Shown here one piece after another: positions 7,463-28,104 of a stretch of 32,000 nucleotides of DNA (position 1 is the stretch's first letter; each line of letters opens with the position of its first letter). Below the pieces are notes generated by a model, which saw only the letters and a program-made list of their open reading frames with translations, was not told the DNA's origin and made no database searches. The stretch is from Candidatus Calditenuaceae archaeon (lineage in GTDB: Archaea > Thermoproteota > Nitrososphaeria_A > Caldarchaeales > Calditenuaceae). The stretch lies in the NCBI GenBank assembly GCA_025059595.1, contig JANXDI010000012.1, positions 97,785-129,784 of the forward strand. Direction: 5' to 3'. The position numbers were made by a program, and so were the translations under genes.

Positions 7463-8290
7463 TTAACCTTTTCTCCAGCCCAGACGCGATGCCGAGACCA
7501 AGTTTCCAAGCTGCTCAGCCGAGAGCTCAGCCGGGAACCCCACCAAAGTATTCACCCTGCTTGAGGCGAGAGTGGAAATCCTCTCAGCAACCTCCTCGAC
7601 ACCACCCACGAGCGAGACCCTCAGAGCCTCACGCAGACCAACAGAGCCGTTACCCACGGCCCTCGCAAGCCTCTTCCTCCTCCGCGCATACGAGACCAAG
7701 ACCCTCTCAACATTCTTAGAGACCCCGTCTTCGCCTATGAAGAACGGGGCATAAACCGCGACGCCGCCCCGGCTTAGTTCGGCGAATGTCCGAGCCTCAT
7801 CCTCCACACCCTCGTCCAGCAGAAGGAAGGCCGTGCAACCCAAGCTGCTGCAGATTCTCCTCGAGACGCCCTCAACGTTCTCGGTTCCGAGAAGCAACGG
7901 CCGACCGTTCAAGACCCTGCTCGCGACCCTGCAAGCAAACCAGAGCAGCCTACCCGGCCTCACAGAGGCCTCCTCGACGCTAAGATAAGCCGGGTTACCG
8001 GCGACGATGCAGAGGCCCATCCGCCTACGCCTCGAGAGAGCCTCCAAGTAGCTCGGCAGGAGACTTCCAAAGTCGCTCCGCCTCACAGGAATTGTTGGAG
8101 CCACAACGGGGCCTCCCACGGCATCTGAATACTCGGCGGCCGCCTCGACATCGGCTGGCTTGAGGTCGTCGACAGCCCTCTCAGAATCGAGGACAACCAC
8201 TTCGACGCCAGCCTCGGATGCGATGCCGACCATCCGGATAAGGTTCTTTCTCTTCTCTTCAGGGCTAGAGCCTAGCATGCTGGGCTTCAA
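7463..8290 (-). CDS. Hypothetical protein (275 aa), family not recognised
   Basis: Long ORF in the same orientation as its neighbours. Any similarity to MTHFR-like TIM barrels (CIVAGNPAYL) is only an impression. Confidence 0.45.
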   Translation of the reverse strand: MKPSMLGSSPEEKRKNLIRMVGIASEAGVEVVVLDSERAVDDLKPADVEAAAEYSDAVGGPVVAPTIPVRRSDFGSLLPSYLEALSRRRRMGLCIVAGNPAYLSVEEASVRPGRLLWFACRVASRVLNGRPLLLGTENVEGVSRRICSSLGCTAFLLLDEGVEDEARTFAELSRGGVAVYAPFFIGEDGVSKNVERVLVSYARRRKRLARAVGNGSVGLREALRVSLVGGVEEVAERISTLASSRVNTLVGFPAELSAEQLGNLVSASRLGWRKG

Positions 8291-8400
8291 AGCGATGCCA
8301 AGCTGGAACTAAACCACCGGCCATACCTCGGGTTGGAGTAGGAGTGGGCTCGGCTTTAAAGTTTACAGCCCCAGACTGCCCACCGTTCCGAAGGGCCCCT

Positions 8401-8784
8401 TTAGCCCTTATACGCGACGGCGTCTATCTCGACGAGGAAGGCCTCATTCACCATCTTGACGGCGACTGTGGTCCTCGCAGGCGGCCCCTCGGGGAAATAC
8501 TCCCTATAGACCTCGTTCATCGCGGCGAAGTCCTCCGGCCTGACGAGATAGACGTTCACCTTGACCACGTCCCTGAGGCTTGCGCCAGCCGCCGCCAATA
8601 TCTCCCTCAGATTCTCCAGCACCCTCCGCGTCTGAGCCCTGACGTCGCCCTCAACCACCTTCCCAGTCGCCGGGTCCACGGCAACCTGCCCAGCCACAAA
8701 TATCCACCCGCCCGCCTTCACGGCCTGAGAGTATGGGCCGACCGGTTTGGGAGCCCTCTCGGTGAAGACAACCTCGCGCACCAT
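8401..8784 (-). CDS. RidA/YjgF/TdcF family reactive-intermediate deaminase
   Basis: Contains [21 protein letters not shown] and ARTTVAV motifs. 127 aa. Confidence 0.85.
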
Positions 8785-8822
8785 AGCCCGCCGGCGATAG
8801 CGGTATGCTCAGAGTAATAAGA

Positions 8823-9026
8823 TTACCTTAGCGGCCTGTCCAGCCTGAAAGCATCTACAACTCCACCAACCTTCTGGATAAGTCCCTCGTCCTCGGTGAC
8901 GAGAGGAACGCCCAGCTCCCTCGCCCAGAAAACGTATGAAGCGTCGTAGAACTTAATCCTCAGGTCTCGGGCCAGCACCAATATAATGGCCCGGAATATC
9001 GCTGAGGAGTCGAAGAGATGGCTCGC
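8823..9026 (-). pseudogene. Truncated PIN-domain (VapC) toxin remnant
   Basis: My own translation gives ASHLFDSSAIFRAIILVLARDLRIKFYDASYVFWARELGVPLVTEDEGLIQKVGGVVDAFRLDRPLR*. The first-Asp motif (FDSSAI) and C-terminal motifs (YDASY, LVTED) are present. The ~50-60 aa middle is missing, there is no start codon, and a TAG lies immediately upstream in frame. Confidence 0.55.
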
Positions 9027-9072
9027 CTATTCTCCCTGTCTCTCCTTATCTCACCGACGACATTCTCAACGC

Positions 9073-13410: not shown

Positions 13411-13489
13411 TGGTGGGGCCGGCCGGATTTGAACCGGCGACCTCCTGGGCCCAAGCCAGGCATCTTAGACCATGCTCGACCACGGCCCC
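13411..13489 (-). tRNA. tRNA-Pro (anticodon UGG), genomically encoded 3' CCA
   Basis: Hand fold of the minus strand: GGGGCCG/CGGCCCC acceptor, anticodon stem CCTGG/CCAGG with loop CTTGGGC, T arm GCCGG-TTCAAAT-CCGGC, discriminator A followed by CCA (13411-13413). Confidence 0.85.
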
Positions 13490-13605: not shown

Positions 13606-14082
13606 TCACTCTTCGACGGTGAAGTAGGCCACTAGCTCTATCTTCTCGTCGGGGCTTCCAACTCTTTCAACTATTACCTCCTTGATGACTCTGTAGCGGC
13701 CGGGCTCGATGTCCTCCGGCAGCTCTATCACTCTGCTAAGCGACTCACCTGGCCCCAGCGTGTAGGCGATGGATATGAAGACTCTCTCGCGCATCCACTC
13801 CGGCGTTACCCACGAGCCGTCGACCATATGCTGAACAGTATACATCTCGCCGAGGACTACCGTGTCGCCCCTGTTATTGACGACCTTGTATCCCAGAGCC
13901 TCTACTCCTCTTTTAACAGTCGTCGAGTCCAAGATGAGCTGCAAACCATTTTTCTCGTCTCGTCCGAGAACTTGGTTGTCTTTTTCCTCATCGCCCTGAG
14001 GGGTGGCGTTTAGCATCATCCATCCCCCGATAAACAGCGCTGCAAGAACCGTTGCCACCGCGAAGGCCCAGAACTTTCCCAC
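13606..14082 (-). CDS. Membrane-anchored/secreted hypothetical protein
   Basis: N-terminal hydrophobic segment FWAFAVATVLAALFIGGWMML followed by a beta-rich soluble domain. No family recognised. Confidence 0.5.
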   Translation of the reverse strand: MGKFWAFAVATVLAALFIGGWMMLNATPQGDEEKDNQVLGRDEKNGLQLILDSTTVKRGVEALGYKVVNNRGDTVVLGEMYTVQHMVDGSWVTPEWMRERVFISIAYTLGPGESLSRVIELPEDIEPGRYRVIKEVIVERVGSPDEKIELVAYFTVEE

Positions 14083-17981: not shown

Positions 17982-18161
17982 TCATTTACGCAGCCTCTCT
18001 TGATGTGACTCCCTCATTAATGCATCGTTCAGAACTAGTTTGCTCATTGTGACTGCAGAGTTAAGAATAAACTCTTTCAGGGTAATCCTCTCTAGCGCCG
18101 CCGCGGCCATGAGAAGGGAAAGAACATCCTCGTCCTTAATCTCTATCACTAACTTTTCCAT
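17982..18161 (-). CDS. 59-aa DUF1778/TacA-like RHH antitoxin candidate with no intact partner toxin
   Basis: My own translation gives MEKLVIEIKDEDVLSLLMAAAALERITLKEFILNSAVTMSKLVLNDALMRESHQERLRK*. GGGGAGG lies 5-11 nt upstream of the ATG. It is one residue below the ORF-track cut-off. Confidence 0.45.
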   Translation of the reverse strand: MEKLVIEIKDEDVLSLLMAAAALERITLKEFILNSAVTMSKLVLNDALMRESHQERLRK

Positions 18162-18287
18162 TGCTTCCTCCCCACGAATATGGAGAAACTAAGCCTCCAG
18201 AATTTAATCGCTATTATATACCCTTCAGAGTCATGCTCGCCATCACAGGAGAAGGCTTTAATTAGCTCAATAGACGCCATCAAGCGC

Positions 18288-18545
18288 TCACCTCTTGCTG
18301 GTATCTGATGCCACTCCGTAACTATCATTAAGACAATCTTCGAGCTTTCGGCTAAGCTCCTCCCTAGAGATGTCTAACCTCAGAGTCCCGTTACTAAAAA
18401 CCACTTCCAAAACAGAGGAATCCGCGAAACAGATATTCAAAATATCCCCCATATCAGCCTCAAACAAACAGTACTCCACATTAGAAAATTCAAGTCTTGT
18501 AAGAGATTTGAGTGAGCTCACCTCAACCGATACCATCCTGGTCAT
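18288..18545 (-). CDS. Hypothetical 85-aa protein in the AT-rich island
   Basis: ORF whose composition matches the island. No motif recognised. Confidence 0.3.
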   Translation of the reverse strand: MTRMVSVEVSSLKSLTRLEFSNVEYCLFEADMGDILNICFADSSVLEVVFSNGTLRLDISREELSRKLEDCLNDSYGVASDTSKR

Positions 18546-18606
18546 ACCCAGGAATTACATACGAACAGAGACCATCTTAAATCTAGTTGAGGAAAACTGT
18601 CATGCT

Positions 18607-19443
18607 TTAAACAGAGTTGTATACATATGTGGAAATATTGTAGTAATAATCAAAGAGCCTCTCACATGAGTCCTTCATATGTGGGTGATGGAAGAGAAAA
18701 GCGACATCTCCTAAGGGGCTGCCCACAGAGTTTACAGGCATGAGAAGGGCCTCCTTTTCATTTACGACTACGTTGAGAGGAAGTACTCCTTCATAAATCC
18801 TCACATTGATTATGTTGTAACCATATTCAGAGTTTACAATTGGTGTCAAATTTTTCTGCTTGCTGTCTAAAAGTATGTAGAGTTTTATCTTACTTGGGTA
18901 GAAAAGGGGGAACATCTCAGCCCCTCTTATAGCAATTTTTAGATATTGTTTTGAAGAAGTGACAACTCTATAAACAAAGTATGTGACATTAAAATATCCT
19001 TCGATAGTTTGCGCCATCATCATGAAGATTGGACACAAACCGTTACATTTCATCGAGGCATTTAGCTCTCGCCACATTTCCTCTAAGTTTTTACCGTGGC
19101 CCGGCTTTGAATGGGGGTCAAGGCAGTTAAGGCAGGGGATAAATGCATTATTAATGGAGAGAAGTTGCAAACTTCTGAAATTTCTATTTATGATATTGTA
19201 CACTTGCAGGAAAAACTCGCCCATGATGCTAAGCGTATATTCCCCGTCATTCTTTTTAACAAACCCCATATCGGATAGTTTTACTAAATATCGTCTTACC
19301 TCTTGGGGAGATAGTTTTAACTTCTTCGCGAGTCTTGTTAAGTTGTGTGGGCAGTTTCTCAGGGCTGATAGGAGTTCCACCTTTTTCCTGCCGCCAAACG
19401 CCGAAAATAGATCACAAGTAGTGTGTTCATCAGAAATACTCAT
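18607..19443 (-). CDS. Winged-helix (ArsR-like) transcriptional regulator with a DUF1724/FilR1-like C-terminal domain
   Basis: The N-terminus VELLSALRNCPHNLTRLAKKLKLSPQEVRRYLVKLSDMGFVKKNDGEYTLS is a wHTH. The C-terminal ...ERLFDYYYN resembles the end of the COG4742 family. Confidence 0.6.
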   Translation of the reverse strand: MSISDEHTTCDLFSAFGGRKKVELLSALRNCPHNLTRLAKKLKLSPQEVRRYLVKLSDMGFVKKNDGEYTLSIMGEFFLQVYNIINRNFRSLQLLSINNAFIPCLNCLDPHSKPGHGKNLEEMWRELNASMKCNGLCPIFMMMAQTIEGYFNVTYFVYRVVTSSKQYLKIAIRGAEMFPLFYPSKIKLYILLDSKQKNLTPIVNSEYGYNIINVRIYEGVLPLNVVVNEKEALLMPVNSVGSPLGDVAFLFHHPHMKDSCERLFDYYYNISTYVYNSV

Positions 19444-19878
19444 CGACTGACAATATGCAATCTAATTTATTTTTTCCAGCAATATTGTGAAAAGTGAGAT
19501 TTTATTGTAATACTCATCGAATACGCTCGAGTTATATTCTTCGCCTATCGTGATCATCAATTAGAAAAGATATTTTTCGCATCTTCGGTACTAAACACTC
19601 TCCAGTCTTCTAAATGTCGGCGGCTCTGGGACATGAGAGCGGTATTCGCGAGGCGGTTGGGAGGAGATTAAGAATGAAGAAGCCTAAGCATCTGGTCGTG
19701 TTTGTGGTTAATTTAGGGGATTTTGATGCGAGTGAGCCGGAGAAACCTTTCAATGAATTTTTAGCCCAGCTTGGAAGATAAGCCCCAGCAGTCGGAGGGC
19801 CTCTACTATATTAAGGCACACTCCGTCTTGGTGGGATACACTATTTAAGAGGATAGCCGGTCTCGGGCTGAGGCTGGC

Positions 19879-21765
19879 TTGGAGGCTCCTAAGGGAGGGC
19901 GTTTTAAAAGGGAGATAGGGTGGTTTAGCGCCTTCTCCATGGGCTTCGGCGACGTAGGGGCTGACGTATTCATAGCCCTCGGGGTTACTATGCTCTACGC
20001 GGGCGGGGCCTCTTTCATCGCCTTCGCAGTCACGGCGATAGCCTATGTAGCGATTAGCCTCTCCTACGCTGAGCTGGCTCCGGCCTACCCCTACGCGGGG
20101 GGTGTGCAGGTTTACTCGCTACGGGCCTGGAACAGCCTCGCGAGCTTCATAGCCGGATGGGCGATACTCCTGGACTACGTTCTCTGCACCTCCCTCTTCG
20201 CCACCGCGGCGGCAGGATACTTCAAGTTCCTATTCAAGGGTGTTGAGGATATCTCCCTCCAGCTGGGGCCCCTCGCGGTCGGAAGCCTAGGCCTCATAGC
20301 GGCGGCGATAGTCCTTTTCCTCGTCGCGATAAACTATTTCGGAATAAAGTATTCGGCGGAGATGAACGCGGCGATAGTGGCCTTCGGACTCGCCGTCCAA
20401 GCGGCTGTAGTCGCTCTGGGCTTCTTGACGGTCTTCGACCCGGCCCGGTTCGCCTCCCAGCTCCAAACCATAGGAAACCCCGAGCCCCAAGAGGAGGTAG
20501 CCTACCTCCCGGGCCTCAGCATCTCGGAGAACAACTTCCTCTACGGTCTCACAATAGCCATGGCCTCATACATCGGCGTCGAGTCGATTGCCCAGGCCGC
20601 CGAGGAGACTCGAAGGCCACACCGCTGGATACCGAGGGCGACGATGCTCTGCGCCGTGATGGTTCCCCTCTTCGTCCTCCTCTTCAGCTCGATTGCGCTG
20701 GGTGGAACTGACTGGCATGTCATCGCGGGGGCCATAGAGAACCCCGTCGCGGCCCTCGTCGCCAGATACCCGGTCTTCGGCGCGGAGCTGGCCCTACTCG
20801 TCTCGCTGACCGCGATAATCCTCTGCACAGTCTCGTCGAATACGGGGCTCATCGGCGTCTCGAGGCTCGCCGCCAGTATGGGGAGGCTCGGCCTTCTACC
20901 TCGCTGGCTCTACCTTATTCACGTCAGATATGGGACGCCGACGAGGGCGATAATCTTCTTCGGAGTCATAGGGCTTCTCCTCACGCTGCCCGGAGATATC
21001 CCGTTCCTCGCAAGCCTCTACAACTTCGGCGCCTCCCTCAGCTACATCATGCTCCTCCTCTCACTCATAGCCCTCAGAAACAAGGAGCCACAGGTATACA
21101 GGCCTTGGAAGATGAGGCCAGCCATCAGGCTAAACCGGAACGGCAGAACCTACGAGATACCACTCTTAGGCCTCCTAGGCCTCGTCATTGTATCCGCGAT
21201 ATTCGTCCTGTTCCTCCTCCTTCACAGCGCGGGGCGCGTCTTAGGCCCCGCTTGGATGGTTGCCGGGGTCTTAGGGTTCTACGCATACCGTAGGCTGGTC
21301 TTGAGGAGGCCCGTGAGGAGCGTCGAGGAGCGGGCCGTCGTGGTGCCCGCGGGCTACATGATGAGGCTTACGGTTCTGGTTAGGCCGAGGGAGGAGCCGG
21401 AGACGGTCGAGGAGGCCCTCCGCCACTCGCTCGACAAGCGCTTCTCCCTCAAGCTCCTCTCCATAGTTGACCCAGAGATAGAGGATGATGTTGAGCATAC
21501 CCGGCTTGAGGCTGAGAAGAACTTGGAGAGGGCGCGGAGAATCCTCGCATCAAGCGGCTTCGAGGTCAAGTCTGAGGTTAGGGTAGGAAGCTACGACGGG
21601 GTTGTGAGCGAGGAGGCTGAGAGGGGCGGCTCAGACTTCATAGTTCTGCTGGTGAGGAGGTTTGAGAGGGCCTACATAGAGAAGGAGTCGCTCCTAGACT
21701 CGAAGATACACTCGGTCCTCGTCAAGTATCCTGCGAAGGTTGTGCTGCTGAGGAAACTCGTGTAG
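19879..21765 (+). CDS. APC-superfamily amino acid/polyamine permease fused to a C-terminal universal stress protein (USP) domain
   Basis: About 12 hydrophobic segments with an APC-like N-terminus (FSAFSMGFGDVGADVF). The C-terminal ~150 aa are soluble and USP-like. The start is non-ATG (TTG). Confidence 0.7.
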   Translation: MEAPKGGRFKREIGWFSAFSMGFGDVGADVFIALGVTMLYAGGASFIAFAVTAIAYVAISLSYAELAPAYPYAGGVQVYSLRAWNSLASFIAGWAILLDYVLCTSLFATAAAGYFKFLFKGVEDISLQLGPLAVGSLGLIAAAIVLFLVAINYFGIKYSAEMNAAIVAFGLAVQAAVVALGFLTVFDPARFASQLQTIGNPEPQEEVAYLPGLSISENNFLYGLTIAMASYIGVESIAQAAEETRRPHRWIPRATMLCAVMVPLFVLLFSSIALGGTDWHVIAGAIENPVAALVARYPVFGAELALLVSLTAIILCTVSSNTGLIGVSRLAASMGRLGLLPRWLYLIHVRYGTPTRAIIFFGVIGLLLTLPGDIPFLASLYNFGASLSYIMLLLSLIALRNKEPQVYRPWKMRPAIRLNRNGRTYEIPLLGLLGLVIVSAIFVLFLLLHSAGRVLGPAWMVAGVLGFYAYRRLVLRRPVRSVEERAVVVPAGYMMRLTVLVRPREEPETVEEALRHSLDKRFSLKLLSIVDPEIEDDVEHTRLEAEKNLERARRILASSGFEVKSEVRVGSYDGVVSEEAERGGSDFIVLLVRRFERAYIEKESLLDSKIHSVLVKYPAKVVLLRKLV

Positions 21766-21785: not shown

Positions 21786-22058
21786 TCACTCCCAAGTCTC
21801 CACACCATTCTTCTTATGCGTGTGGAGTATAATCGAGGTAACGGAGCTCTTGACGCCCTCCACGCTATACACTTCCTTCGAGATGAACCTCCTCAAATCC
21901 TCGATACTTGAGACCGAGACAAGCGCGATAACGTCATACTCGCCAGTCACCTCGTAAACGTCCAGAGTCTCGGGGAGCTTTGCCAGCTGCTCGCAGACGC
22001 TCTCGAGCTTCCCCGACTCAACGAAAATGTGTAGAACCGCCCTAATTCCAGAAGCCAT
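21786..22058 (-). CDS. Stand-alone Lrp/AsnC-type RAM domain protein
   Basis: AVLHIFVESGKLESVCEQLAKLPETLDVYEVTGEYDVIALV...VEGVKSSVTSIIL. No HTH. Confidence 0.65.
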   Translation of the reverse strand: MASGIRAVLHIFVESGKLESVCEQLAKLPETLDVYEVTGEYDVIALVSVSSIEDLRRFISKEVYSVEGVKSSVTSIILHTHKKNGVETWE

Positions 22059-22174
22059 ATCCGCTACTCGAATCGCTGTAGAAGCCCTCTAATTAATATG
22101 CCGCCAAAAATACAGCCCGGAAGCCTCGCAAGACCCGAATTCAGCTTGAAGACGCTTTTCATCCTCGGAGGCTC

Positions 22175-23503
22175 TCAACCGTTACTTCTCCTCTCAGAAT
22201 CCGAGCCGGCCGGCTTACCTCTTCTTCTCTTATTTACGATTTGGACAGCCACCAAAGCTGCCGCAACGGCGCCTGCGCCGCCTATTGACGGTAAATCCGG
22301 CTCCAAGCCATACACGGCCTCGACATACTTGGGCGAGTCTACCTTGATGGATAGGGGGCCTCTGGTGAAGCAGCCCTCACCGCAGTCGCCGGCGTAGCGG
22401 CTGAGAACTCTCTTCGCGAAGAGGAAGGCCTGTAGCTCAGCCGGAGCCCAGACGACGGCCGTCGAGTTGGCTGGATACCATCCCGAGCCGGCCGCGCCCG
22501 CCGGAGACCTGACATCCACCCTATACTCCAGCCGGTAAACCGCACGCGCCGTGACGGGTGAATTGACGGTAAGCTTCACGCCCGGGGTGCTAGACGCTAT
22601 GTCGCCCTCCCAGCCGATGAAGAAGAGCCTCGCCGCATTGGGTATTAGCTCTATCGTGGGCGGCGTGGAGAGGTGGAGGGCCTCGCCTTCCCTGAACCAG
22701 TCATCGACGATGACGCCTTCAGGCCCGGCCACATAGACTTTAAAGTATCTGTCATACTCTGCCCTCACGGCGTGGGGGGCCATGGCCTCGAGCGTCGCTA
22801 CGGTCGAGCCTGCGCCTTGGATGATGGCTGGGTAGAGGCCGACTGAGACCCACTCCCTGAAGACCAGCCTCTCCCTGTCGCCGACTCTTATCTCCCTTGG
22901 AGCAGAGATGACTACGAGGTCGCCTAGCCGGTACCATCCAGACCCATTGACTGGAGCGCCGTGAATCGAGATGACATCAACCCTCACCTCTCTTCTGAAC
23001 CTCGCCTCAACGTAGACTGGCTCCGTGACTACGAGAATGTTCACCTCGCCGAACGGGGACTCCCCCATACTCCACCTCTCGAAGACGTATCTGAATCCTC
23101 CCTCGAAGTAGAACTTCTCAGCCTCGAGGACGACCCTCTCACCCCTCCTTACCCAGAAGCTACGCCTCAAGGGCTCATAGTTTGAGTCGAGAATCACGAG
23201 GACCTCCTCGTCGTATAATGCCTCGAGAACGTCTGACTTCGCTGTCACGCACGGGGTCGTCTCGCCGCTTGACCAGCCTCTGAAGACAAGCCTCCTGTCG
23301 GAGGCCAAGTAATAGACGTGGTGGACTACGCAGACGTTGGACCCCGGGCTAACCTTGGCTGGGAACTTCTCCACCAAATCGCCGTTGACCGTTAACGGGA
23401 GGCCATACCTGTTCGAGACCGTGGCCGCTTCACTCTCAGAGTAGGCCGTGTTCACAGCCAAGGCGAGAGCCACGAGCAGAACGGTGAAGGCTACGCCTCT
23501 CAT
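22175..23503 (-). CDS. Secreted, C-terminally membrane-anchored surface protein with ~5 divergent InlB-B-repeat-like domains
   Basis: Signal peptide MRGVAFTVLLVALALAVNTAYS. Repeating motifs RLVFRGWSSGE, RYVFERWSMGE, RLVFREWVSVG, RLFFIGWEGD and a degenerate fifth, each followed by ...V.A.Y. C-terminal TM segment GGAGAVAAALVAVQIV plus a basic tail NKRRRGK. Confidence 0.65.
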   Translation of the reverse strand: MRGVAFTVLLVALALAVNTAYSESEAATVSNRYGLPLTVNGDLVEKFPAKVSPGSNVCVVHHVYYLASDRRLVFRGWSSGETTPCVTAKSDVLEALYDEEVLVILDSNYEPLRRSFWVRRGERVVLEAEKFYFEGGFRYVFERWSMGESPFGEVNILVVTEPVYVEARFRREVRVDVISIHGAPVNGSGWYRLGDLVVISAPREIRVGDRERLVFREWVSVGLYPAIIQGAGSTVATLEAMAPHAVRAEYDRYFKVYVAGPEGVIVDDWFREGEALHLSTPPTIELIPNAARLFFIGWEGDIASSTPGVKLTVNSPVTARAVYRLEYRVDVRSPAGAAGSGWYPANSTAVVWAPAELQAFLFAKRVLSRYAGDCGEGCFTRGPLSIKVDSPKYVEAVYGLEPDLPSIGGAGAVAAALVAVQIVNKRRRGKPAGSDSERRSNG

Positions 23504-24165
23504 AACCCAAAAACCTCCATAAAGGATTTCTTAGAGATTGAGGCTAGGCACGCCACGATTAGGAGAATATACGAGGCGGCGACCAGCCTCCGAGCCACCC
23601 CATCAACTCTTGGCTCAAGGAACTTCAGAGAGAGAATCATCGCCAGCAGAATTAGGGCTGCAAAGGGTCTTCCCAGCGAAGCGAGGCCCGTGTCGCCGAC
23701 GGCCGCCATCAGGGCTAGCGAGAAGGCCGCGGGGAGAAATAGCGAAGAATCTGTGAATCGACCTCTAGGCAACGCTATGATGGCCGCGAGGCCGAGGATT
23801 ACGGCAGGCAGGGTTGTGACGCTTAAGGCCAAGTATCCGAGGAGCGGTATGACTAGGAGGGCCCTACCCTTAACCCTCTCCCACCCTATCAGTTCAGAAT
23901 AGCCGGGATAAGCGTCGGCGGTAATCACGACCCCGTCTGGCCCAACCTCGGAGACCCTGTGCATCACTGTCCGGCCCTCAAGGTCGTAGAGAACCATCTC
24001 GCCCGGAGCCACAAAAACATCAGGAGCCGCTATGACGAGCGAGCCGACTGGGACGCTGGGCTCCATGCTCCCAGAGACAATGTAGTGAAGCGTGAGGTGA
24101 CCGCTCAGGGCCGCGTAGAGAAGGGCCACCCCTGCGAGAACAATTGCGAGCTCCAAAGCCCTCAA
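23500..24165 (-). CDS. Type I signal peptidase (archaeal/ER/SipW type, Ser-His) with a ~120-aa multi-TM C-terminal extension
   Basis: N-terminal TM segment, SGSMEPSVPVGSLV (nucleophile Ser), and VMHRV (His). It ends in three to four further hydrophobic segments. Confidence 0.75.
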   Translation of the reverse strand: MRALELAIVLAGVALLYAALSGHLTLHYIVSGSMEPSVPVGSLVIAAPDVFVAPGEMVLYDLEGRTVMHRVSEVGPDGVVITADAYPGYSELIGWERVKGRALLVIPLLGYLALSVTTLPAVILGLAAIIALPRGRFTDSSLFLPAAFSLALMAAVGDTGLASLGRPFAALILLAMILSLKFLEPRVDGVARRLVAASYILLIVACLASISKKSFMEVFGL

Positions 24166-24539
24166 GGCTGATACACCCTCACCCTGACGGTTACCGGGGC
24201 ATTAAACGCGCATGTGGACGCTAGCGGTATTATTACGGTTGTGGTGCCTGTGCCTAGCGTGACCGTTACCTCCCCCGAGGCGCTGCAGGCCCCCACGCTG
24301 ACATAGGCCACTACTCTGTAGGACCCCGGCTGAGTCACCGCGATGTCGGCGGTGACCGTGCTTATGGTCGTCCCTGTGAGGGGCACTTGGACTCTCGTGA
24401 CCCTGACGTCCGTCTTGATGACTGCGACTTGGCCGGTCCCACCTAGCTGGCTCAGGTTGGGCATGGACATCGCCACGGAGTAGGCTGCCAGCGTGAATGC
24501 AACTATCAGACCGGTCAGAGCGAGGGTCTGGAGCTTCAT
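24162..24539 (-). CDS. Small secreted beta-rich protein C (putative fibre/pilin subunit)
   Basis: MKLQTLALTGLIVAFTLAAYSVAMSMPNLSQLGGTGQVAV... then a T/V-rich sequence. ATG 24539 forms an ATGA overlap with the stop of gene B. Confidence 0.6.
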   Translation of the reverse strand: MKLQTLALTGLIVAFTLAAYSVAMSMPNLSQLGGTGQVAVIKTDVRVTRVQVPLTGTTISTVTADIAVTQPGSYRVVAYVSVGACSASGEVTVTLGTGTTTVIIPLASTCAFNAPVTVRVRVYQP

Positions 24540-24973
24540 AGACACATCACGGAAGAGGGGCAGGAAGACACGATAGCCACACATGTTATAACCCGCGCCA
24601 CGCTGTACGCGTCTGCCAAACCCGTGAGCGATATCTGGACAGTCGTCGTTCCTGCTCCAGCTGGCACGCTAACGCACGCACTTCCTATTGCAAGCTGATT
24701 TCCATTAGCGTCGTAGAGCCCAGCTTGGAAGACGGCCCAAGTCGCGGCCCCAACTCCCCTAGTGTATGTTACATCGACGCGGTAAACGTCATTTCCTATG
24801 AGCTGGAGCTGGGCCACCCTTATCCTAATGATTCGAGTAGATGAGTAGCCTAGCTCGTAAATCGTGTCCGGCCTATTCGGGAGCACGGCCACCTGTGAGA
24901 CGAGAATTGGGACGGAAAAAACTGCTGAGGCTGTGAAGACCGCTAGAGCCGCTAGTAGGGCTCTATTGCTCAA
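24536..24973 (-). CDS. Small secreted beta-rich protein B (putative fibre/pilin subunit, divergent paralog)
   Basis: MSNRALLAALAVFTASAVFSVPILV... then a beta-rich domain. It overlaps gene A by 11 nt. Confidence 0.55.
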   Translation of the reverse strand: MSNRALLAALAVFTASAVFSVPILVSQVAVLPNRPDTIYELGYSSTRIIRIRVAQLQLIGNDVYRVDVTYTRGVGAATWAVFQAGLYDANGNQLAIGSACVSVPAGAGTTTVQISLTGLADAYSVARVITCVAIVSSCPSSVMCL

Positions 24974-25379
24974 CTATGACTACCTCAATTCTGTAGACGA
25001 CGCTGGGACTGATGTTGGAGACGTCTACAGTCGTTGTCACTTGCAAAGGTGAGGCTGCTTGCGTAGCTGACCCCGACGAGACTACGACGTTATTGTTGTC
25101 GTAGAGGACGACGTAGACCGTGTATGTCGCGCCTATGGGCTTAGCTGTTGTCCACTGCACGTTAACCCTGTCGACTAGGTATGGCGGCGAGGTTGTGAGT
25201 GTCCAGCTGACCCTAGTTATCTGGCAAGTGCTCGCGGGGCAGCTTACGTCAACTAGGCCTGTCCCACCCAAAGCGTTTACGTCGGTTGAGCTGAGGCTTA
25301 TCAGAACAGCGTAGCTCGCAGTTACCAGCAGCCCGAGAAGAACAGCCATCACGAGCGACACACTTGCCCGGCCACTCAT
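24963..25379 (-). CDS. Small secreted beta-rich protein A (putative fibre/pilin subunit)
   Basis: Start taken at ATG 25379: MSGRASVSLVMAVLLGLLVTASYAVLISLSSTDVNALGGTGLVDV... It shares the A-[SA]-Y-x-V...LGGTG-x-V-x-V motif with protein C. Confidence 0.6.
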   Translation of the reverse strand: MSGRASVSLVMAVLLGLLVTASYAVLISLSSTDVNALGGTGLVDVSCPASTCQITRVSWTLTTSPPYLVDRVNVQWTTAKPIGATYTVYVVLYDNNNVVVSSGSATQAASPLQVTTTVDVSNISPSVVYRIEVVIVEQ

Positions 25380-25404
25380 GACATCTAATCTCACTATAGG
25401 GCCC

Positions 25405-25412
25405 TTATTTAG
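25405..25412 (-). promoter_or_regulatory. TATA-like box (CTAAATAA on minus strand) ~29 nt upstream of ATG 25379
   Basis: Based on position and composition. It lies at the edge of a ~180-nt AT-rich intergenic region. Confidence 0.35.
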
Positions 25413-25622
25413 ACATAACGAATTGCCCGCGGGAAACAATTTTCTCGAATTACTTCACAAATTATTACTATTGTTAGTTTCTTTGTTTAGCTCTGCGGAT
25501 GACTGGTCTTTTCTGCCAATGTGGGAGGGTTACAGATTTACAAAATATGAAAAATAATATAATTGCATGAATTTTTAGCTCCAGAGGAAAAACCACTAGG
25601 CTGGATGAAGCGGTCAAAGCCT

Positions 25623-25725
25623 TGGGGCCGGTGGGACTTGAACCCACGGCTTCCGGGTTTCTTCTGCGCCAGCCACGATTCTGAGACCTGGAGCCCGGCG
25701 CCCTACCTTGCTAGGCCACGGCCCC
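25623..25725 (-). tRNA. tRNA-Trp (anticodon CCA) with a ~29-nt intron in the anticodon loop; no encoded CCA
   Basis: Hand fold: acceptor GGGGCCG/CGGCCCC, D arm GCCT-AGCAAGGTA-GGGC, anticodon stem CCGGG...CCCGG separated by 36 nt beginning CTCCAG, T arm GTGGG-TTCAAGT-CCCAC. 103 nt = 74 + 29. Confidence 0.8.
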
Positions 25726-26780: not shown

Positions 26781-28104
26781 TTGAGTCAGATAGACCTTGG
26801 AAAGCTGGCTGTGAATTATTCGAGGTATTATCCGGGGGAAGATTGAGGTCCACCCCAAGGTTCCGGTCAGGGGGTTGAGGGACTTCGCAATCTGGTATAC
26901 GCCTGGCTTCGCGGATGCCTGTCGAGTCATCGTGAATGACAGGGATGAGGCCTTCAACCTTACGAACAGGTGGAACACGATAGCGGTTTTGACGAATGGG
27001 ACGCGGGTGCTCGGGCTGGGGAATATCGGCCCTGAGGTAAGCCTCCCTGTGATGGAGGGGAAGGCTCTTATCTTCAAGTATCTGGGGGGCGTGGATGCGA
27101 TTCCTGTCGCGGTTAGGGCCGAGTCTCCGGAGGAGTTCATCAAGGTGGCGAAGGCTCTGGAGCCCACATTTGGGGGCTTCAACCTCGAAGACATCCAGTC
27201 CCCGGACTGCTTCTAGATTCTCGAGAGGCTTACGGCGGAGGTCGAGATTCCGGTCTGGCACGACGACCAGCTCGGAACAGCCGCATATACTCTAGTCGCC
27301 CTCATCAACGCCCTGAAACTCACAGGCAGATCGCCGAGAGATACTGGGATTGTTATGCTCGGAGCGGGGGCGGCGAACATAGCCACGTGCATCCTCCTCG
27401 AGAAGTATGACTTCGACCCCGGGAAGATGATTCTGATAGACAGGGGCGGGGTACTTCACCCGGAGAGGTTTGACATGGAGTCGATGAAGTCGAGCAATAG
27501 GTGGAAGTATGAGATAGCGCTCAGGACGAATAGGGATGGGGTGAAGGGTGGGCTTAGGGAGGCTCTGGTGGATGCCGACGCGCTCATAGCGGCCTCGACG
27601 CCGGGGCCGGGCGTGGTCAAGAAGGAGGATGTGAAGCTGATGGCGAAGGACCCGATAGTCTTCGCCCTCGCAAACCCCGTCCCCGAGATATGGCCTTGGG
27701 AAGCCCAAGAGGCCGGAGCCGCTGTGGTCGCCACAGGAAGAAGCGACCTCCCAAACCAGGTCAACAACAGCCTCATATTCCCGTCGGTCTTCAGGGGAGC
27801 CCTAGACTGCAGCGCGAGGCAGATTACCTACGAGACGATGATTAGCTCCGCGGTGGAGCTTGCGCGGTGCGCGGAAGAGAAGGGCCTCTCGCCGAACTAC
27901 ATTATTCCGACGATGGAGGAGTGGATGGTCTTTCCAAGGGTGGCGGCCGCCGTGGCCGACTCCCTCTCAAGGGAGGGCCTCGCGCGGAGGAAGGTCAGCT
28001 ATCAGGAGGAGCTTGGGCTGGCGCAGGAGATAATAATGAGGGCGCGGCAGACCTTGAAGGCCCTTGTTGATTCGAGAATAGTTGTGGAGCCTTCGGAGGC
28101 TTAG
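26781..28104 (+). pseudogene. NAD(P)-dependent malic enzyme, disrupted by a frameshift in a G5 run (26834-26838) and an in-frame TAG (27214-27216)
   Basis: Three pieces line up with the malic enzyme pattern. First, ...NYSRYYPG then, one G later, KIEVHPKVPV..DFAIWYTPG...VLGLGNIGPEVSLPVMEGKALIFKYLGGVDA...GGFNLEDIQSPDCF. Then TAG. Then ILERLTAEVEIPVWHDDQLGTAAYTLVALINAL...VMLGAGAAN... Confidence 0.75.

Follow-up and report, generated by a model that had tools for sequence, protein, structure and literature searches.

What structure is encoded by a cluster of five overlapping genes in which three small secreted proteins accompany a signal peptidase and a repeat-rich membrane protein? Such a cluster lies on the minus strand of a 32,000-nucleotide stretch (the window) of contig JANXDI010000012.1 from a Candidatus Calditenuaceae archaeon of the order Caldarchaeales (assembly GCA_025059595.1, forward-strand positions 97,785–129,784). 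We refer to the genes and their products as A to E; A, B, and C are the small proteins, D is the signal peptidase I (SPase I), and E is the repeat protein. Several archaeal and bacterial fibres (TasA, AbpA, AbpX, CanA, threads, and Tafi) are assembled by N-terminal donor-strand complementation after SPase I cleavage. Their loci often encode an unusual, dedicated signal peptidase (SipW, TafD, or the AbpX peptidase with ten transmembrane (TM) segments) and, besides it, minor subunits, tip proteins, an accessory DUF5305 protein, and a membrane anchor (for example, TafF). We propose, with a probability of roughly 0.5 for the mechanism as a whole, that the cassette builds a peptidase-dependent surface fibre or short fimbria by N-terminal strand donation, anchored by E. 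It is highly probable that the cassette is a conserved secreted or surface module whose subunits are processed by its own SPase I. A preliminary description of this DNA had recognized the same composition (three beta-rich secreted paralogs, a Ser/His SPase I, and a repeat protein anchored by a C-terminal TM segment) and the same logic as in tapA-sipW-tasA, and both are upheld by our analysis.

The five genes were found in the order A-B-C-D-E in every Caldarchaeales locus fetched (L001–L014, approximately eight distinct genomes). Since this order recurs amid wholly different flanking genes, the grouping goes beyond chance. Gene A has 85 homolog clusters at identities of at least 48%, all of them unnamed and all from Caldarchaeum-like archaea. 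The three loci of A homologs that were looked up possessed the same five genes at the same sizes, with the overlaps mostly kept, and were neighboured by histidine biosynthesis genes, NurA/HerA, and a polysaccharide synthase. A scan with an E profile, restricted to one genome per species, found six more Caldarchaeales loci, and BLAST comparison of all their open reading frames (ORFs) gave the same order in each. The co-conserved operon put forward in the preliminary description was thereby confirmed.

Alignments of the orthologs of A, B, and C showed Sec/SPase I signals in which a basic n-region and a hydrophobic core precede a c-region that ends in A-[YF]-[AS]. All three signals are of the cleavable type, in agreement with the earlier view that the proteins are secreted rather than integral membrane or cytoplasmic, and the mature proteins would consist of 114, 125, and 104 residues, respectively. 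In all three families, the P1 position is Ala or Ser in 100% of the sequences, P3 is mostly Ala, and P2 is Tyr or Phe. The primed side is also kept in all three, with Val at P1′, Ile or Leu at P3′, and Leu or Val at P5′, giving the common junction A-[YF]-[AS]↓V-x-I-x-[LV] (the arrow marks the cleavage site). SPase I demands mainly positions −3 and −1. Conservation out to position +5 exceeds this demand and therefore suggests that the mature N-terminus of A, B, and C has a role after cleavage. The new N-terminus is followed in A and C by a Gly-rich LGGTG segment, and the two motifs previously noticed in both proteins, A-[SA]-Y-x-V and LGGTG-x-V-x-V, are present and kept in the orthologs.

The N-termini had also been given a different interpretation, in which A and B are type IV pilin-like proteins cut after R-A at a class III signal and assembled via the hydrophobic N-terminal helix. 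The window proteins A (MSGRA↓S) and B (MSNRA↓L) do fit the loose [KR]-[GA] motif, which is also present in 17 of 54 close A homologs. However, the R-A motif is missing from most orthologs (which begin, for example, with MKKAVY, MRKAVL, or MRVKYL), whereas the A-[YF]-[AS]↓V site located where the hydrophobic segment ends, an A-x-A-type site 20–24 residues in, is invariant among them. In addition, no prepilin peptidase, PilB-like assembly ATPase, or PilC platform protein was found in the cassette or within 6–10 kb of it, in the window and in the related loci; the cassette encodes an SPase I instead. Type IV pilin-like assembly of A and B is thus extremely improbable, and we have abandoned this alternative of the preliminary description.

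BLAST scarcely links the three small proteins (A finds C orthologs by BLASTP at 4e-5). They are nevertheless paralogs as judged by profile–profile comparison, because hhalign joins them over their full length (A–C, 2.6e-14; A–B, 5.2e-14; B–C, 9.5e-7). A is the best conserved of them, with 56–71% identity in its orthologs. Mature B begins with V-x-I-x-V-x-Q-V-x-x-L-P-N-R-P-D, and its core is paralogous to A and carries a Cys-rich tail (SSCPSSVMCL). An AlphaFold model of A, calculated from a 54-sequence alignment, has a mean predicted local distance difference test (pLDDT) score of 76. Its beta-sandwich core, from residue 51 to the C-terminus, has pLDDT values of 82–96 (about 90 for the core as a whole). 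Seven strands were assigned in residues 44–137, the first of which (44–47) lies inside a low-confidence block (41–50, mean 59), and residues 25 to ~50 show values of 47–59. With 1.91 bits per column, as against 1.77 for the core, this N-terminal extension is at least equally well conserved. In the model, residues 25–27 form a strand that pairs with the domain, which recalls the self-complementing monomer models reported for AbpA. A is therefore predicted to be an immunoglobulin (Ig)-like sandwich of ~95 residues behind a conserved N-terminal extension, consistent with the all-beta, fibre-subunit type of fold anticipated for A, B, and C.

The best Foldseek match of the A model against the Protein Data Bank (PDB) has an E value of 0.023, and the 50 top matches are all generic Ig-like or E-set sandwiches, such as Cj0090, DUF1425, RhoGDI, and the Ig domains of GH2 enzymes. 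When the window proteins and 60 family members were scanned against Pfam and NCBIfam, there was no model for A, B, or C and just scattered sub-threshold Ig-like matches (such as fn3 and FxLYD), and single-sequence and profile searches with the three proteins against all PDB sequences gave nothing significant. The three proteins thus remain outside any named family, as had been stated. With HMMER, the A profile retrieved 76 clusters from 1.84 billion representative proteins, and most of these clusters are of proteins 130–175 residues long that share the same layout; the rest are short fragments and a few weakly matching, very large repeat proteins. The latter are generic He_PIG, Big_7, and fn3 repeat proteins and were set aside as uninformative. 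Among the proteins retrieved, P0174 (256 residues) is a natural tandem of two A-like Ig domains, and its second domain has neither the N-terminal extension nor the LGGTG linker, which helps to set the domain boundary.

These searches bear on whether A, B, and C are highly diverged but true members of the TasA superfamily, that is, minimal jelly rolls with the N-terminal strand as donated strand 'B' and with strands C to I represented by the seven in the model. The locus follows the same grammar, including a DUF5305-fused peptidase beside a distant A-like gene; one N-terminal strand plus seven core strands add up to the eight of a jelly roll; and members of this superfamily are known to be joined by the most sensitive methods alone. 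On the other hand, neither PF12389 (Peptidase_M73/TasA) nor DUF1102 matched A, B, C, or 60 A-family members even at E ≤ 1. The profile searches covered the PDB sequences of TasA, AbpA, and the thread protein, and the 50 top Foldseek matches consist of Ig-like and E-set sandwiches, with no jelly-roll fibres, in line with the weak fn3 matches. The mature proteins, at 104–125 residues, are also far below the 150–200 residues of known members. Membership in the TasA superfamily is accordingly unlikely, and the homology to TasA, CalY, or AbpA considered in the preliminary description received no support. PF12389 TasA homologs have been reported in Caldarchaeales; these are different genes from A, B, and C, which have no PF12389 match.

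D has the catalytic residues S33 (in SGSMEP), H69-R70, and D84, which are invariant in the cassette peptidases. Alignment with bacterial SipW-like peptidases showed these residues, together with G100, P107, and G110, to be held in common. The S26B signature is present, with Ser in S-x-S-M-x-P, His (not Lys) as the base in H-R, and the Asp of a GDxN box. A profile made from the cassette peptidases alone matched human SEC11C and SEC11A at 7e-11 to ~1e-10, and a mixed profile reached 5e-18. On the basis of the shared catalytic residues and the SEC11 profile matches, D is assigned as an endoplasmic reticulum (ER)/SipW-type Ser/His SPase I (MEROPS S26B). The SGSMEP and HRV motifs, from which a Ser/His signal peptidase had first been recognized in the operon, are both present and invariant. 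Judged from its sequence, D is a divergent member of the family with an extra C-terminal TM region: its score against Peptidase_S24 is 18.4 bits (cutoff, 23.3 bits), and at least four further hydrophobic segments are located at residues 98–130, 139–157, 160–187, and 194–212. The Caldarchaeales enzymes have ~100 extra C-terminal residues, corresponding to three or so added hydrophobic helices, and the extra segments are missing from the 147–152-residue peptidases of distant cassettes.

Because D holds all the catalytic residues of a functional enzyme, and because the SPase I genes surveyed here were those of the cassette loci, D might be the organism's general SPase I, its adjacency to genes for secreted proteins being incidental. 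We consider this very unlikely. D lies between C and E, with 4-nucleotide overlaps, in every cassette, and the linkage of an A-like gene to a peptidase survives in very distant loci. D is, moreover, fast-evolving (30–49% identity among cassette orthologs), scores below the equivalog cutoff of its family, and bears the clade-specific extra TM segments.

E contains five repeats of ~72–82 residues each (26–98, 99–169, 170–251, 252–324, and 325–399), built around R-x-[VF]-F-x-x-W, with the aligned pattern G-x-G-W-Y...R-L-x-F-x-x-W...A-x-Y. Its AlphaFold model (mean pLDDT 89) shows five beta-rich repeats between a signal helix and a TM helix, after which the chain ends in KRRRGK; the signal peptide, approximately five repeats, C-terminal TM segment, and basic tail noted previously were all recovered. 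The best Foldseek matches of the model are linear tetra-ubiquitin chains (3e-5 to 2e-4), accompanied by other tandem ubiquitin-like or SHIRT arrays. Since these are tandem ubiquitin-like arrays, the model indicates that E is composed of five tandem beta-grasp (InlB-B-repeat-like) domains. Twenty-six homologs of E were found, and the distant ones carry PF18998 (divergent InlB B-repeat). The window E has no Pfam match at E ≤ 1, and an E-like protein from Bathyarchaeia matches PF18998 at 0.018. E resembles the InlB B-repeat proteins (PF18998 Flg_new_2/TIGR02543) in the pattern G-x-G-W-Y...R-L-x-F-x-G-W-x-G-D...A-x-Y, in the predicted beta-grasp fold, and in the PF18998 matches of its distant homologs, but that repeat has not been described in linkage with a signal peptidase and small Ig-like proteins. 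E is putatively a membrane anchor or stalk, or a partner of D. A subunit-like anchor in the style of TafF was also considered and rejected, as hhalign of the A family against E showed no relation.

The cytoplasmic part of E varies. A Zn_Ribbon_1 domain follows the TM segment in many orthologs (L003, 7859–9262; L005, 7867–9306; L007, 7877–9310), and it is missing from the window E and from the orthologs in L009–L011 and L013; the cytoplasmic tail is thus a variable module. A Bathyarchaeia metagenome-assembled genome (L015, 6674–8368, plus strand) encodes a 564-residue E-like protein with a signal peptide, InlB-B-like repeats, a TM segment, a zinc ribbon, and, at the C-terminus, a further cytoplasmic domain. 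Genes for A, B, C, or a peptidase are absent from its vicinity, and the E family thus also occurs outside the cassette.

Distant loci of the A family were found by look-up of the exact proteins, and the genes of three of them (L022–L024) were assigned with family hidden Markov models at E values of 1e-7 to 1e-54. L024 contains A, A′, B-type, and C-type genes, a 147-residue signal peptidase, and a 469-residue E-like protein; L023 contains A, B-type, and C-type genes, a 152-residue peptidase, and a 658-residue E-like protein; and L022 contains A, a 152-residue peptidase, and a 440-residue E-like protein. The A-like protein of L022 belongs to a 90%-identity cluster labelled Desulfurococcales archaeon by NCBI. 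In all three loci the E-like gene comes after the peptidase with an overlapping stop and start. L018 and L021 consist of a single A-like gene followed directly by a signal peptidase of 191–192 residues, with no E. Accordingly, A is duplicated in L024 and is the sole subunit in L022, L018, and L021, and the B-type and C-type genes keep their positions in L023 and L024. In L020, the A-like gene is followed directly by a natural fusion of SPase I to DUF5305 (5e-19; 7506–9047, plus strand; 513 residues). Through this fusion, the accessory module known from Tafi and AbpX loci is connected with the unnamed subunit family. From the linkage of subunit and peptidase across these loci, the conserved core is read as one or more A-like subunits plus an SPase I, usually together with an E-like protein. 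The division into A, B, and C and the gene order are, by the same gene assignments, ancient.

We propose the following mechanism. The five genes would form one transcription unit for a cell-surface structure, in which the first gene is apparently leaderless and the downstream genes are translationally coupled. A, B, and C would be exported by Sec, their precursors being held in the membrane by the signal peptides until D cuts them after A-[YF]-[AS]. The cut would expose an amphipathic V-x-I-x-[LV] beta-strand, followed by the Gly-rich linker (LGGTG in A and C) and the ~95-residue Ig-like sandwich. By donor-strand complementation, the freed strand would most likely insert into an adjacent subunit's sandwich. 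This would yield a thin fibre or short fimbria, assembled without a chaperone, with A as the major subunit and B and C as minor ones (adapter, tip, or terminator). E, in which a membrane helix carries a rod of five beta-grasp domains, would form the base or stalk of this structure and possibly be a partner of the peptidase. Cleavage of A to C by D, polymerization by strand donation, the roles assigned to A, B, C, and E, and an adhesive or matrix function are all points that we infer.

A fibre is the most economical explanation because conservation extends to the primed side of the cleavage site, the N-terminal extension is modelled poorly in spite of its conservation, there are minimal loci of subunit plus peptidase, and Tafi, TasA, and AbpX offer precedents. 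Several observations weigh against it. The A monomer model is already seven-stranded in residues 44–137, which makes an open acceptor groove hypothetical. TasA, AbpA, and thread chains are absent from the 50 top Foldseek matches of the model, and the sequence and fold searches detected no likeness to the known donor-strand pilins (TasA, AbpA, thread, TafE, CanA, and chaperone-usher). The comparison of the A family with E by hhalign revealed no A-like domain in E (probability 6%), and a joint between E and the fibre is accordingly hypothetical. D scores 35.1 bits against TIGR02228, whose equivalog cutoff is 51.85 bits, and that D is dedicated to the cassette we infer from synteny, divergence, and the extra TM segments.

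Some of the same observations would fit a non-polymeric surface or pseudo-periplasmic complex, in which A, B, and C would associate with the E stalk, or with one another, at a fixed stoichiometry, for example as a heteromeric adhesin, receptor, or envelope scaffold. The conserved N-terminal segment could then be a docking peptide or a recognition element for the peptidase. The A monomer model looks like a complete seven-strand sandwich, no likeness to a known pilin was detected, and three paralogs kept in fixed order over a long evolutionary distance would suit a fixed stoichiometry. The zinc ribbon on the cytoplasmic side of many E orthologs hints at signalling or regulated anchoring, and the tight translational coupling of D and E fits a membrane complex. 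However, a single A-like gene with a peptidase and no E (L018 and L021) is hard to understand as a fixed hetero-complex and is like the minimal abpX locus of Pyrodictium abyssi. A dedicated signal peptidase is, in the known cases, the hallmark of TasA/Tafi/AbpX-type polymers. The alternating hydrophobic pattern, which is typical of donor strands, also begins right at the new N-terminus. We regard a non-polymeric complex as the main rival, though the less probable of the two, and retain the strand-donating fibre as our preferred interpretation.

Caldarchaeales (formerly Aigarchaeota) are mostly uncultured hot-spring archaea whose cell-surface biology is essentially unknown, and the cassette offers a concrete candidate for an adhesion or biofilm structure in them. 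Should the mechanism hold, the principle of a dedicated signal peptidase combined with a strand-donating subunit would reach beyond the TasA superfamily, to a different and much smaller fold. We put forward, as a tentative idea, that Caldarchaeales and other Thermoproteota possess a new class of filament, in which minimal Ig-like subunits (~95-residue core) unrelated to the TasA superfamily expose their strand upon cleavage by a cassette-specific Sec11-type peptidase and grow from an anchored rod of five beta-grasp domains. If true, this would be a third independent invention of peptidase-triggered donor-strand assembly, beside TasA-type fibres and bacterial type V pili. The analysis also provides three curatable families that have no Pfam or NCBIfam model, namely the A/B/C Ig-like family, the clade of cassette peptidases, and the E-like five-repeat anchor, and the very small thermostable subunits would be attractive for engineered protein fibres.

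The arrangement of the genes in the window (Table 1) was confirmed with the ORF list, and public gene calls on the matching contig give 138, 145, 125, 221, and 442 residues for A, B, C, D, and E, respectively. All four junctions overlap, as expected from the tight packing reported earlier, and they were read directly. The stop codon (TAG) of A and the start codon (TTG) of B overlap by 11 nucleotides (24963–24973), and B/C and D/E each have an ATGA in common (24536–24539 and 23500–23503, respectively); these three junctions are as described before. The C/D overlap had likewise been given as ATGA, but the four nucleotides at 24162–24165 are TTGA, and D starts with TTG, not ATG. The ORF of gene A can be extended to a TTG at 25439. 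The shorter form is supported by the orthologs and the gene calls, and its start is therefore most likely the ATG at 25379–25377 (MSGRA...). The DNA upstream of gene A is AT-rich at 25440–25590, and the spacing of the TAAATAA element, compared with the usual archaeal TATA-to-start distance, suggests that gene A is leaderless or nearly so. GAGG/GGAGG-like motifs that may act as Shine-Dalgarno sequences precede the starts of B (GAGGT before its TTG), D, and E. Scans for bacterial-type promoters and terminators, a type of scan that is not meaningful for an archaeon, found no more sites than in shuffled sequence.

Table 1. Genes and putative signals of the cassette in the window.
Feature	Position	Strand	Description
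Gene A	24963–25379	minus	138-residue precursor; Sec signal 1–24 (...ASYA↓V); extension 25–43 (V-x-I-x-L...LGGTG); predicted Ig-like sandwich ~44–137; putative major subunit
Gene B	24536–24973	minus	145-residue precursor, TTG start; Sec signal 1–20 (...AVFS↓V); predicted Ig-like core; putative minor subunit (adapter, cap, or terminator)
Gene C	24162–24539	minus	125-residue precursor; Sec signal 1–21 (...AAYS↓V); extension with QLGGTG; predicted Ig-like core, two conserved Cys; putative minor subunit
Gene D	23500–24165	minus	221-residue Sec11/SipW-type (ER-type, Ser/His) signal peptidase I; N-terminal TM segment and catalytic domain
Gene E	22175–23503	minus	442-residue type I membrane protein; signal peptide 1–22; five repeat domains; TM segment 404–427; short basic cytoplasmic tail
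TATA-like element TAAATAA	25405–25411	minus	~29 nucleotides upstream of the gene A ATG; read from the sequence
Short stem and T-run GCTGTATTTTTGGCGGC	22100–22116	minus	~60 nucleotides past the E stop; possible transcript end; consensus scan, weak evidence

Several features around the cassette were also recorded. A tRNA gene of 103 nucleotides, presumably intron-containing, lies at 25623–25725 on the same strand, ~245 nucleotides upstream of gene A (Rfam RF00005, 58 bits; missed by ARAGORN). A second tRNA gene at 13414–13489 (minus strand; Rfam, 63 bits) adjoins a small ORF with a Big_14 domain (13606–14082) in a stretch of lower G+C content (~0.50 at 13–15 kb). The region 18001–20000 has a G+C content of 0.41–0.44, compared with ~0.60 elsewhere, and encodes a 278-residue helix-turn-helix protein (18607–19443, minus strand); its gene content differs between the otherwise near-identical contigs L001 and L002, suggesting a variable or acquired island. 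The malic enzyme is apparently split, in both L001 and L002, into an N-terminal 'malic' part of 113 residues (26875–27216, plus strand) and a Malic_M part of 249 residues (27355–28104, plus strand); possible explanations are a genuinely split gene, a frameshift, and a pseudogene. Directly downstream of E, a 90-residue protein consisting solely of an AsnC/Lrp ligand-binding (RAM) domain is encoded at 21786–22058 (minus strand). This gene is not kept beside the cassette in other genomes; Tafi loci hold an Lrp/AsnC-type regulator, TafB.

Among the known systems, the thread cluster of Sulfolobus acidocaldarius (Saci_0406/Saci_0405) has a subunit that is processed by SPase I independently of PibD and consists of an N-terminal tail strand and a beta-sandwich head, and a paralogous putative cap gene is co-transcribed with it. 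It differs from the cassette in that no dedicated peptidase has been reported in the cluster, in that its subunit head is heavily glycosylated and has 11 strands and isopeptide bonds, and in that the searches with A, B, and C revealed no similarity to it. The likeness to chaperone-usher pilins would be one of mechanism only, with small Ig-like subunits and an alternating-hydrophobic N-terminal extension completing a neighbour; the cassette has no chaperone or usher, belongs to an archaeal single-membrane envelope, and shows no homology to them.

The tapA-sipW-tasA operon of Bacillus subtilis likewise includes a dedicated ER-type (Ser/His) signal peptidase, which processes a secreted beta-sandwich fibre subunit and an accessory/anchoring protein, and the donor strand lies right after the cleavage site. 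The cassette subunits, however, have no PF12389 match and are Ig-like rather than TasA jelly rolls, the cassette has three subunit paralogs where the operon has one, it belongs to an archaeon, and its large protein is an integral membrane beta-grasp repeat protein that is not TapA-like.

AbpX of P. abyssi and AbpA of Pyrobaculum calidifontis are, like A to C, secreted subunits of Thermoproteota that are cleaved by SPase I, and theirs assemble without a chaperone by N-terminal strand donation. The abpX loci contain a dedicated SPase I, minor subunits, and tip proteins, and there is a minimal two-gene locus of subunit and peptidase, as in L018 and L021. AbpA had been cited in the preliminary description as a precedent for a peptidase within the operon; the authors of the work on the Pyrobaculum archaeal bundling pilus (ABP) operon, however, report no dedicated signal peptidase near abpA, and the Tafi and AbpX loci are better precedents. 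The AbpX peptidases have ten TM segments, and the AbpX donor strand is aromatic/acidic and Ca-binding (isoelectric point ~4), whereas the donor candidates of the A family are V-x-I-x-L with a non-aromatic position 2, and no sequence or fold match to AbpX or AbpA was found.

The Tafi system (Haloarcula hispanica and Natrinema, with taf-like DUF1102 clusters in Thermococcales and Archaeoglobales; PMC11821415, PMC12337348) is similar in many respects. Its clusters comprise 5–7 genes and encode two or three small, secreted subunits that are paralogous to each other, a dedicated multi-TM S24/S26 peptidase, TafD, with conserved Ser, His, and Arg, and a larger protein with a C-terminal TM segment, TafF, the proposed anchor. 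Its subunits have been described as Ig-like proteins that carry N-terminal donor strands, and non-halophile versions use Sec/SPase I signals. The distant L020 locus, where an A-like gene adjoins the peptidase–DUF5305 fusion, adds a further likeness. The differences lie in the components. A, B, and C have no match to DUF1102 or a Taf family and are 104–125 rather than 150–200 residues long; the window cassette has no DUF5305 protein, TafB-type regulator, or twin-arginine translocation (Tat) motif; and D has no equivalent of the second extracellular Ig-like domain of TafD. E has a five-fold beta-grasp repeat and no subunit-like N-terminal domain as in TafF, making the two analogous, not homologous. 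DUF5305 (TafG) matched none of the five window proteins and was seen solely in the L020 locus. At the system level, two of the features of the Tafi and AbpX loci are present: an SPase I in the cluster, and paralogous small subunits beside a TM-anchored large protein. The cassette is thus organized like the TasA, Tafi, and AbpX loci, with major and minor subunits, an SPase I, and a TM anchor, but from different parts.

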